Shown: in pieces, positions 23,714 to 24,322 of the stretch | How positions within the stretch are numbered: position 1 is the stretch's first letter | How the letters are laid out: each line of letters begins with the position of its first letter | Assembly: GCF_000027325.1 (NCBI RefSeq) | Contig: NC_000908.2 | Location: 510,001 to 542,000 of the forward strand | From: Mycoplasmoides genitalium G37 | GTDB taxonomy: Bacteria > Bacillota_I > Bacilli_A > Mycoplasmatales > Mycoplasmoidaceae | DNA: 32,000 bases | Reading direction: 5' to 3' | Program-made: the position numbers and the translations under genes | The notes under the pieces: generated by a model | Databases searched by the model: none | What the model was told of the DNA's origin: nothing | The model's input: only the letters and a program-made list of their open reading frames with translations

Positions 23714-23745
23714 AAAAATACCTGTAATTTTGCAGGTATTTTTTT
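23714..23745 (+). terminator. Rho-independent terminator downstream of the OsmC-like gene, upstream of the sigma-20 gene
   Basis: Stem ATACCTG (23718-23724) pairs with CAGGTAT (23733-23739), 8-nt loop TAATTTTG, followed by a T6 run (23740-23745). An A-run precedes it, so the stem could extend or act bidirectionally. Confidence 0.65.
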
Positions 23746-23806
23746 ATTTAAAAAAAGGATAAATTTAAGAAATTAAATTTCGCTTTAGCAGTCGATAATT
23801 GATCAT

Positions 23807-24322
23807 ATGAAAAATAATATTAGTGATGTAAAGTTGGGACTGTTAGCAGCAAAAATTTATTGAAAATCTTGACGCTTTTTAGAGTTAACAGAAGATGACA
23901 TTATCTCTATTGCACTTCATGCAGAGCAAGATTCTAAGAAGCGTTTTAATCCTGAATTTGGCTTAAGTTTTGACAACTATCTCAAATTAAATGGAGCAAA
24001 TTTCATTAGATCAAGTTTTAGAAGTATGGTGAATAAAGTTGAATTGCTTGATTCTAAAAGTAAATACTCATTAGAAAAGCAAAACACAGTTCTAAATACA
24101 CCTGAAAACTATTTACGGAGTTTAGAATTTAAAGAAATTATTACTAAAGCTTTTAATAAAGCTAAAAACGATCAAGAGAGAAAAGTTTTTTCTTTATATG
24201 TAAAGGGCTATAAAAACTTTGAGATAGCAAAAAAGCTCAATATTAGTCCTAGAAGAGTGAGATATTTATTAGATCTTTTTAAAAGCTACATCAAATTGCT
24301 AACAGAAAGATATGGATATTAA
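23807..24322 (+). CDS. MG_428: Small alternative sigma factor (MG428 / sigma-20), 171 aa
   Basis: ATG at 23807-23809 is in frame with track ORF 24026..24322, joined through TGA codons (MKNNISDVKLGLLAAKIYWKSWRFLELTEDDIISIALHAEQDS...). The C-terminus ERKVFSLYVKGYKNFEIAKKLNISPRRVRYLLDLFKSYI is a sigma-70 region-4/LuxR-type HTH. The N-terminus TEDDIISIALHA resembles ECF region 2. At ~20 kDa and in this position it matches MG428 as I remember it. Confidence 0.8.

Follow-up and report, generated by a model that had tools for sequence, protein, structure and literature searches.

The window, a stretch of 32,000 nucleotides of the M. genitalium G37 genome, was found to contain rpmB, an OsmC-like gene and a sigma factor gene on the plus strand, and ptsI, gpmI and tpiA on the minus strand, all three convergent with the sigma gene (Table 1). 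The ORFs were read with the Mycoplasma code, in which TGA encodes Trp, and gene identities were taken from Pfam. By the gene order of M. genitalium G37, the sigma gene is MG_428 (sigma-20, rpo20), its upstream neighbour is MG_427 and ptsI is MG_429. The locus is the published rpmB-MG_427(osmC)-MG_428(sigma-20)/ptsI locus of this strain. Its architecture is real and conserved in M. pneumoniae, and its key part has already been published.

Table 1. Features of the sigma-20 locus of M. genitalium G37 (positions of the window, except in the row for the window itself) and of the corresponding locus of M. pneumoniae M129 (coordinates and expr values of Dataset EV2, PMC12494982; the scale of expr is apparently log2)
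Feature	Genome	Coordinates	Strand	Basis or value
Window	M. genitalium G37	510001-542000 of the single-contig 580,076-bp genome
rpmB, ribosomal protein L28, MG_426 position	M. genitalium G37	23041..23235	+	ORF; Pfam Ribosomal_L28 E 7e-17
OsmC-like gene, MG_427	M. genitalium G37	23271..23696, stop codon 23694-23696	+	ORF; Pfam OsmC E 4e-18
Bidirectional intrinsic terminator, orthologue of M. pneumoniae ter625 (TTS395/TTS396)	M. genitalium G37	23713..23750	both	folding and conserved stem
A/T-rich block, ~29 nt	M. genitalium G37	23750..23778	+	alignment with L002
GATAAT, -10-like hexamer	M. genitalium G37	23794..23799	+	sequence; conserved in L002
MG_428/rpo20, sigma-20, 171 aa, two TGA=Trp codons	M. 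genitalium G37	23807..24322	+	ORF; Pfam Sigma70_r4_2, Sigma70_ECF
TTAA stop/stop overlap of sigma-20 and ptsI, 4 nt	M. genitalium G37	24319..24322	both	ORF coordinates
ptsI, PTS enzyme I, MG_429, at the end of the minus-strand operon	M. genitalium G37	24319..26037	-	Pfam PEP-utilizers N, mobile and C domains
gpmI, cofactor-independent phosphoglycerate mutase	M. genitalium G37	26041..27564	-	ORF; Pfam iPGM
tpiA, triosephosphate isomerase, start codon uncertain	M. genitalium G37	27557..28315	-	ORF; Pfam TIM
TSS00510, before MPN625	M. pneumoniae M129	751405-751425	+	expr 10.2
MPN625 (osmC)	M. pneumoniae M129	751428-751853	+	expr 10.2
TTS395, at the hairpin	M. pneumoniae M129	751875-751919	-	expr 3.58
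TTS396, at the hairpin	M. pneumoniae M129	751877-751920	+	expr 3.57
MPN626 (sigma)	M. pneumoniae M129	751988-752506	+	expr 3.62, protein not detected
TSS00511, inside MPN626	M. pneumoniae M129	752019-752039	+	expr 2.29
TSS00512, inside MPN626	M. pneumoniae M129	752082-752102	+	expr 3.70
MPN627 (ptsI)	M. pneumoniae M129	752503-754221	-	expr 9.2

The product of MG_428 was found to contain a region 4 helix-turn-helix (Pfam Sigma70_r4_2, E 8e-6, at a score barely above the curated cut-off) and a match to Sigma70_ECF (E 2e-4). No Pfam region 2 match was found in this protein at E<=0.01, and the sigma-20 homologue of locus L005 was found to match Sigma70_r2 (E 3e-5). The binding of sigma-20 to RNA polymerase and its promoter specificity have already been published (Torres-Puig et al. 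2015, PMC4446450). A contig of one RNA library (run X7) differed from the window at five positions (23540, 24259, 24284, 24299 and 24511). Three of the differences fall within the final 64 nt of MG_428, where, on a reading of the frame, A>G at 24284 replaces Ser160 with Gly and the remaining two leave the protein unchanged. The hairpin, the leader and the stop overlap were free of differences.

The gap between MG_427 and MG_428 was found to contain a hairpin that begins 17 nt past the OsmC stop codon. Read on the plus strand, the hairpin contained 14 pairs at 23713-23744 followed by seven T and then ATTT, with a folding energy of -15.6 kcal/mol (z -4.3; none of 200 shuffles folded as stably). 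On the minus strand, the terminator scan gave a stem of 11 pairs closing an 8-nt loop at 23743..23714, with five T, CGC and six T after it, and the folding energy was -11.5 kcal/mol (z -3.9; again none of 200 shuffles). The stem contained 3 G-C pairs among its 11-14 pairs, and the hairpin is considered bidirectional because T-runs flank the stem on both strands. Two terminator-like sites were found in 22900-26300, the hairpin included, against a shuffle mean of 1.2, and on the minus strand of this region the hairpin at 23743..23714 was the only one. At the equivalent place in the M. pneumoniae-like locus L002 (genome G005), the stem was kept and the loop was changed.

The A/T-rich block at 23750-23778, directly 3' of the terminator, was found to be near-identical between M. 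genitalium and L002, followed by 15-20 diverged nucleotides. A promoter of the sigma-20 type (TTGTCA-N18/19-ATTWAT) was considered in the 61-nt leader as a route of autoregulation. The best candidate was ATTAAA at 23772-23777, for which the -35 position holds TTTAAA, and was rejected by eye; inspection of the A/T-rich block likewise gave no promoter of this type.

Torres-Puig et al. 2015 (PMC4446450) already described a putative Rho-independent terminator between MG_427 and MG_428 and saw in it a possible explanation of the low expression of MG_428. In M. pneumoniae, the orthologous hairpin ter625 was used as a portable terminator in a 2025 Mol Syst Biol paper (PMC12494982), which describes it as the element silencing the MPN626 sigma factor. 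Reporter expression was higher when the hairpin was mutated than when it was wild type, and transposons carrying terminators were found to be enriched at ter625, at position 751905, which fits toxicity of the sigma factor (PMC12494982). Termination activity has been shown for ter625 of M. pneumoniae, of which the M. genitalium hairpin is the orthologue. The initial annotation had proposed that a terminator hairpin with a T-run separates the rpmB/OsmC unit from the sigma gene; folding confirmed this element, and the observation is a rediscovery because the element had been published (PMC4446450) and validated as ter625 (PMC12494982).

In the 61-nt leader, GATAAT was found to be the sole hexamer with a 5/6 match to TATAAT, the three others having a 4/6 match. 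It was followed by 7 nt (23800-23806) before the ATG at 23807, and no Shine-Dalgarno-like purine run was found between the two. A hexamer of this kind 5-9 nt before the ATG was found at 2.5% of all genomic ATG triplets vs 7.7% of called ATG-start genes. The pattern is recurrent in the genome, and the placement of GATAAT taken alone is only mildly beyond chance. The hexamer was fully conserved in L002, 8 nt before the ATG, within an otherwise poorly conserved stretch. A conserved leader structure hiding the start codon was also considered and rejected, since a small hairpin over the ATG was found in M. pneumoniae (z -2.8) and none in M. genitalium (z +1.5). In L002 this structure, at 1477-1505, consists of a 5-bp G-C hairpin (CGGGA/TCCCG) with a UUCAU/AUGAA extension in which the sigma start codon is paired (z -2.8), and it has no M. 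genitalium equivalent.

GATAAT had been proposed as the promoter of a leaderless or near-leaderless sigma-20 mRNA. The hexamer, its distance of 7 nt from the ATG and the lack of a Shine-Dalgarno sequence were confirmed, whereas the promoter role was not. According to the available text of Torres-Puig et al. 2015 (PMC4446450), the promoter of MG_428 was mapped by primer extension upstream of MG_427, and among the entries listed in the annotation of M. pneumoniae neither a TSS nor a TATA box was found at the start of MPN626, where the conserved GATAAT would act (~751974-751988; Dataset EV2, PMC12494982). The operon entry of MPN626 in the same dataset equals the coordinates of the gene. The promoter of MG_427 was reported to be strong, constitutive and without regulation by sigma-20 (Torres-Puig et al. 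2018).

In M. pneumoniae, the RNA of MPN626 appears to be ~1% of that of MPN625, provided that expr is a log2 value, and its level matches that of the plus strand past the terminator (3.62 vs 3.57), which fits a read-through of roughly 1% from MPN625. The site of terminator-transposon enrichment at 751905 lies upstream of the hexamer, and enrichment there is to be expected only if the polymerases that harmfully transcribe MPN626 arrive from an upstream start. Taken with the M. genitalium primer extension, these M. pneumoniae data argue that read-through, and not GATAAT, supplies the sigma-20 mRNA. GATAAT is regarded as a conserved -10-like hexamer and at best a very weak promoter.

GATAAT may act as a weak or conditional promoter, because a conserved xATAAT box also precedes the sigma homologues of five more distant relatives. 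This would be a promoter of the housekeeping sigma factor that makes sigma-20 mRNA independently of read-through, for example in the rare ON cells, with no role for ptsI antisense transcription. The conservation of the hexamer in M. pneumoniae and a chance expectation of 2.5-4% for a hexamer at such a distance are consistent with this reading. It is nevertheless considered very unlikely, since no TSS was reported at the start codon among the entries listed, the RNA of MPN626 was at the read-through level of the terminator, terminator insertions were selected upstream of the hexamer, and the hexamer has a G in place of T at the first position, which weakens a sigma-70 -10 box.

In wild-type M. 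genitalium, the MG428 protein was undetectable, whereas a copy of MG_428 fused directly to the MG_427 promoter, without the intergenic region, gave a ~20-fold higher transcript level and detectable protein (Torres-Puig et al. 2015, PMC4446450). The terminator was named by those authors as the explanation of the 20-fold rise. The contributions of the terminator and of ptsI are combined in this rise, because the ectopic copy was freed of both the terminator and the convergent operon. With ectopic MG_428 transcribed from the constitutive MG_427 promoter, most cells were still OFF, and activation of sigma-20 was found to need RrlA and RrlB, with positive feedback and an apparent stabilisation of sigma-20 (Torres-Puig et al. 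2018).

The sigma ORF and ptsI were found to share the nucleotides TTAA in a 4-nt stop/stop overlap at 24319-24322. No terminator-like hairpin was found across the sigma/ptsI junction on either strand (folding z ~0 both ways). The overlap of the two convergent stop codons, with no terminator between them, had been noted in the initial annotation and was borne out by the ORF coordinates, the terminator scan and the folding. Crude calling of genes over the whole genome (519 ORFs, 94% coverage) gave 57 convergent junctions, of which 34 overlap and 12 have exactly this 4-nt stop/stop arrangement. Where both ORFs were at least 150 aa, 20 of 26 junctions overlapped, 8 of them by exactly 4 nt. A 4-nt overlap is what compaction of this genome usually yields, not a dedicated device. 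The overlaps of the 12 junctions were palindromic (TTAA, TTAG, CTAA or CTAG), and no other single spacing was as frequent among the convergent junctions of the genome. L002 carried CTAG at the position of the sigma/ptsI overlap, and the same overlap habit was found in the gene table of M. pneumoniae.

A second convergent overlap was observed at MPN014, a gene with a TOPRIM/primase domain that overlaps the convergent MPN015 by 24 nt and has a weak expr of 3.58, like MPN626. By genome position, MPN014 looks like the counterpart of MG_010, which is listed as regulated by sigma-20 (Torres-Puig et al. 2018). In the M. genitalium genome (G000), the stretch G000:C1:12068-13564, outside the window, was found to contain a convergent junction with the same 24-nt overlap, at 12701-12724.

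The orthologue of MG_428 in the M. pneumoniae-like genome G005 was 68% identical, and its locus L002 kept the hairpin, GATAAT and the 4-nt overlap. The convergent sigma/ptsI layout was found only in G000 and G005, whereas the two genes were co-directional in G001, G003, G004, G006 and G010, among seven genomes in all. The sigma homologues of the five relatives of the same genus were 27-32% identical (BLASTP E 3e-15 for L003). In these relatives (L003-L007; L003 at 1-2702), the sigma homologue comes immediately after ptsI in the same orientation, and a strong terminator and rpsO come after it. In L003 the ptsI-sigma spacer was 77 nt and contained no terminator-like hairpin. A conserved TCATAATTA box, which contains ATAAT, was found 25-35 nt before the sigma ATG in all five relatives. 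The linkage of ptsI, sigma and rpsO is considered ancestral, because the same-strand order is common to the five relatives. In M. genitalium and M. pneumoniae (window 21220-24322), the sigma gene was found to be inverted, behind helicase-rpmB-osmC and the terminator.

Antisense read-through of ptsI into MG_428 is structurally plausible. Since the hairpin is bidirectional and is the sole minus-strand terminator-like site, the tpiA-gpmI-ptsI transcripts would have a tail of ~0.6 kb, antisense to the whole of MG_428 and ending at the hairpin. Judged from the sequence and the annotation of M. pneumoniae, transcripts of the ptsI operon probably carry this ~0.6-kb antisense tail. In M. pneumoniae, ptsI is gene 4 of 4 of operon OP317 (Dataset EV2, PMC12494982), and no 3'UTR of the ptsI operon was found among the entries listed in that annotation. 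In four public RNA libraries, which are unstranded, 22960-24820 was found within single contigs of 7-23 kb at a flat depth.

A promoter-like site was also observed on the minus strand at 24431-24459, in the 3' end of ptsI. It contained an extended -10 box preceded by TG (TTTAAA-17-TAAAAT) and, if active, would start an RNA antisense into MG_428. Such sites numbered 13 in the region vs 17 expected by chance. A plus-strand terminator for sigma-20 inside ptsI, at 25290-25304, was considered and rejected for its weak folding (z -1.6 and -1.0). This weak hairpin with a T-run lies ~970 nt past the sigma stop, at a position homologous to that of TTS397 annotated in M. pneumoniae (L002 ~2969-3016). 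It may be a by-product of coding conservation, because it folds poorly (z -1.6).

In one reading of these features, GATAAT is the true sigma-20 promoter, the mRNA is leaderless, and read-through of the glycolysis/PTS operon represses the gene by polymerase collision or an RNA duplex, thereby tying the rare activation of sigma-20 to carbon metabolism. A -10-like box at a leaderless distance, conserved in M. pneumoniae and in a configuration 3-fold enriched at called gene starts, is consistent with it. So is the minus strand, which contained no terminator-like site before the hairpin and which in M. pneumoniae has a terminator annotated there. The RNA of ptsI is far above that of MPN626 in M. 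pneumoniae (expr 9.2 vs 3.6), and the ptsI-sigma linkage is kept in seven genomes. However, the primer extension, in the text available, places the promoter upstream of MG_427, and no TSS at the ATG of MPN626 was found among the entries listed. The overlap layout is generic, most cells were OFF even with constitutive ectopic transcription, and a sigma gene co-directional with ptsI in five relatives would give the coupling the opposite sign. The probability of this reading is considered to be quite low.

In another reading, read-through from MG_427 is the sole source of mRNA and the convergent ptsI adds a second layer of silencing, directed at the few polymerases that read through, by interference or by RNase III cleavage of the duplex. 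It draws on the same anatomy, and on the absence of both the terminator and the convergent operon from the ectopic ~20-fold copy. In the available text of Yus 2019 (PMC6721554), five convergent gene pairs had anticorrelated expression, attributed to interference through supercoiling. Likewise, the available text of the S. aureus study (PMC8745188) describes read-through of the sbrB terminator that gives an antisense RNA shaping the heterogeneous expression of lexA. However, the global analysis of M. pneumoniae in the same portion of Yus 2019 (PMC6721554) found no anticorrelation of antisense and sense RNAs and argues that antisense RNAs are mostly noise. The 4-nt overlap is moreover the commonest layout in the genome, and the layout is absent from the more distant relatives. 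This second layer of silencing is considered unlikely.

The initial annotation had assigned to ptsI antisense transcription a regulatory role that couples sigma-20 to carbon status. This role was not supported: the layout is generic (12 of 57), the orientation is not conserved, and most cells stay OFF despite constitutive MG_428. Antisense control by ptsI is a hypothesis whose anatomical basis is the default layout of the genome. Most likely, the antisense tail is a by-product whose damping effect is modest at most. Any measurable effect of ptsI antisense transcription on sigma-20 is given roughly one chance in five, a figure which is the sum of the two readings that involve ptsI antisense transcription. 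It is also improbable that the hairpin serves two operons, throttling sense read-through and ending the antisense ptsI tail, in such a way that glycolysis/PTS flux lowers the sigma-20 mRNA or the ON fraction. If true, this would tie recombination and antigenic variation to carbon metabolism in a near-minimal cell, and the PTS/glycolysis link would be a concrete, testable input to the sigma-20 switch.

The preferred explanation, which is considered probable as a whole, combines supply by read-through, gating after transcription and a ptsI tail that is a by-product. The sigma-20 gene would be near-silent, with no effective promoter of its own. A few RNA polymerases from the strong constitutive MG_427 promoter would read through the terminator at 23713-23750 and provide the main source of sigma-20 mRNA, with a read-through of ~1-5% according to the published experiments and the data on the M. 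pneumoniae orthologue. The rare ON state is, as published, set mostly after transcription, by the instability of sigma-20, the accessory proteins RrlA and RrlB, and positive feedback. The tpiA-gpmI-ptsI transcripts, with their ~0.6 kb antisense tail, would end at the same hairpin. The stop overlap would come from compaction, and GATAAT would be at best a very weak promoter. The switch matters because it turns ON in <1% of the cells of a human pathogen and because sigma-20 governs recombination, antigenic variation and horizontal gene transfer there.

As in MG_428, the start codon of leaderless and near-leaderless Mycoplasma mRNAs is preceded at 6-8 nt by a -10 box, and there is no Shine-Dalgarno sequence. 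Very short 5'UTRs, of 3 and 6 nt for example, are found in the annotation of M. pneumoniae (PMC12494982), whereas for MG_428/MPN626 no TSS was mapped at the start codon among the entries listed. The MG_427-MG_428 terminator (PMC4446450) and ter625 (PMC12494982) are the same element in the gap between osmC and sigma-20, and both were blamed for the very low expression of sigma-20. The present analysis adds that this hairpin is the sole minus-strand terminator-like site downstream of ptsI; TTS395 is present in the M. pneumoniae annotation, without discussion in the available text of these papers.

Overlapping convergent transcription has been described in genome-reduced mycoplasmas (Llorens-Rico 2016, PMC4783119; Yus 2019, PMC6721554), which, like this locus, were found to combine no Rho, few terminators and antisense by-products. 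The available text of both studies concludes that most antisense RNAs are noise, a conclusion that is genome-wide and not specific to one locus.

The closest likeness to the proposed control is the sbrB-lexA pair of S. aureus, for which the available text (PMC8745188) describes a convergent neighbour with antisense transcription into a heterogeneously expressed regulator of DNA repair and recombination, as the initial annotation proposes here. In S. aureus measurements exist of both the antisense RNA and its effect, and the read-through arises at a terminator that is imperfect, whereas the M. genitalium case is known from sequence, with no terminator between the genes and a generic layout. Because the precedent of sbrB-lexA exists, the antisense idea is testable and not far-fetched.
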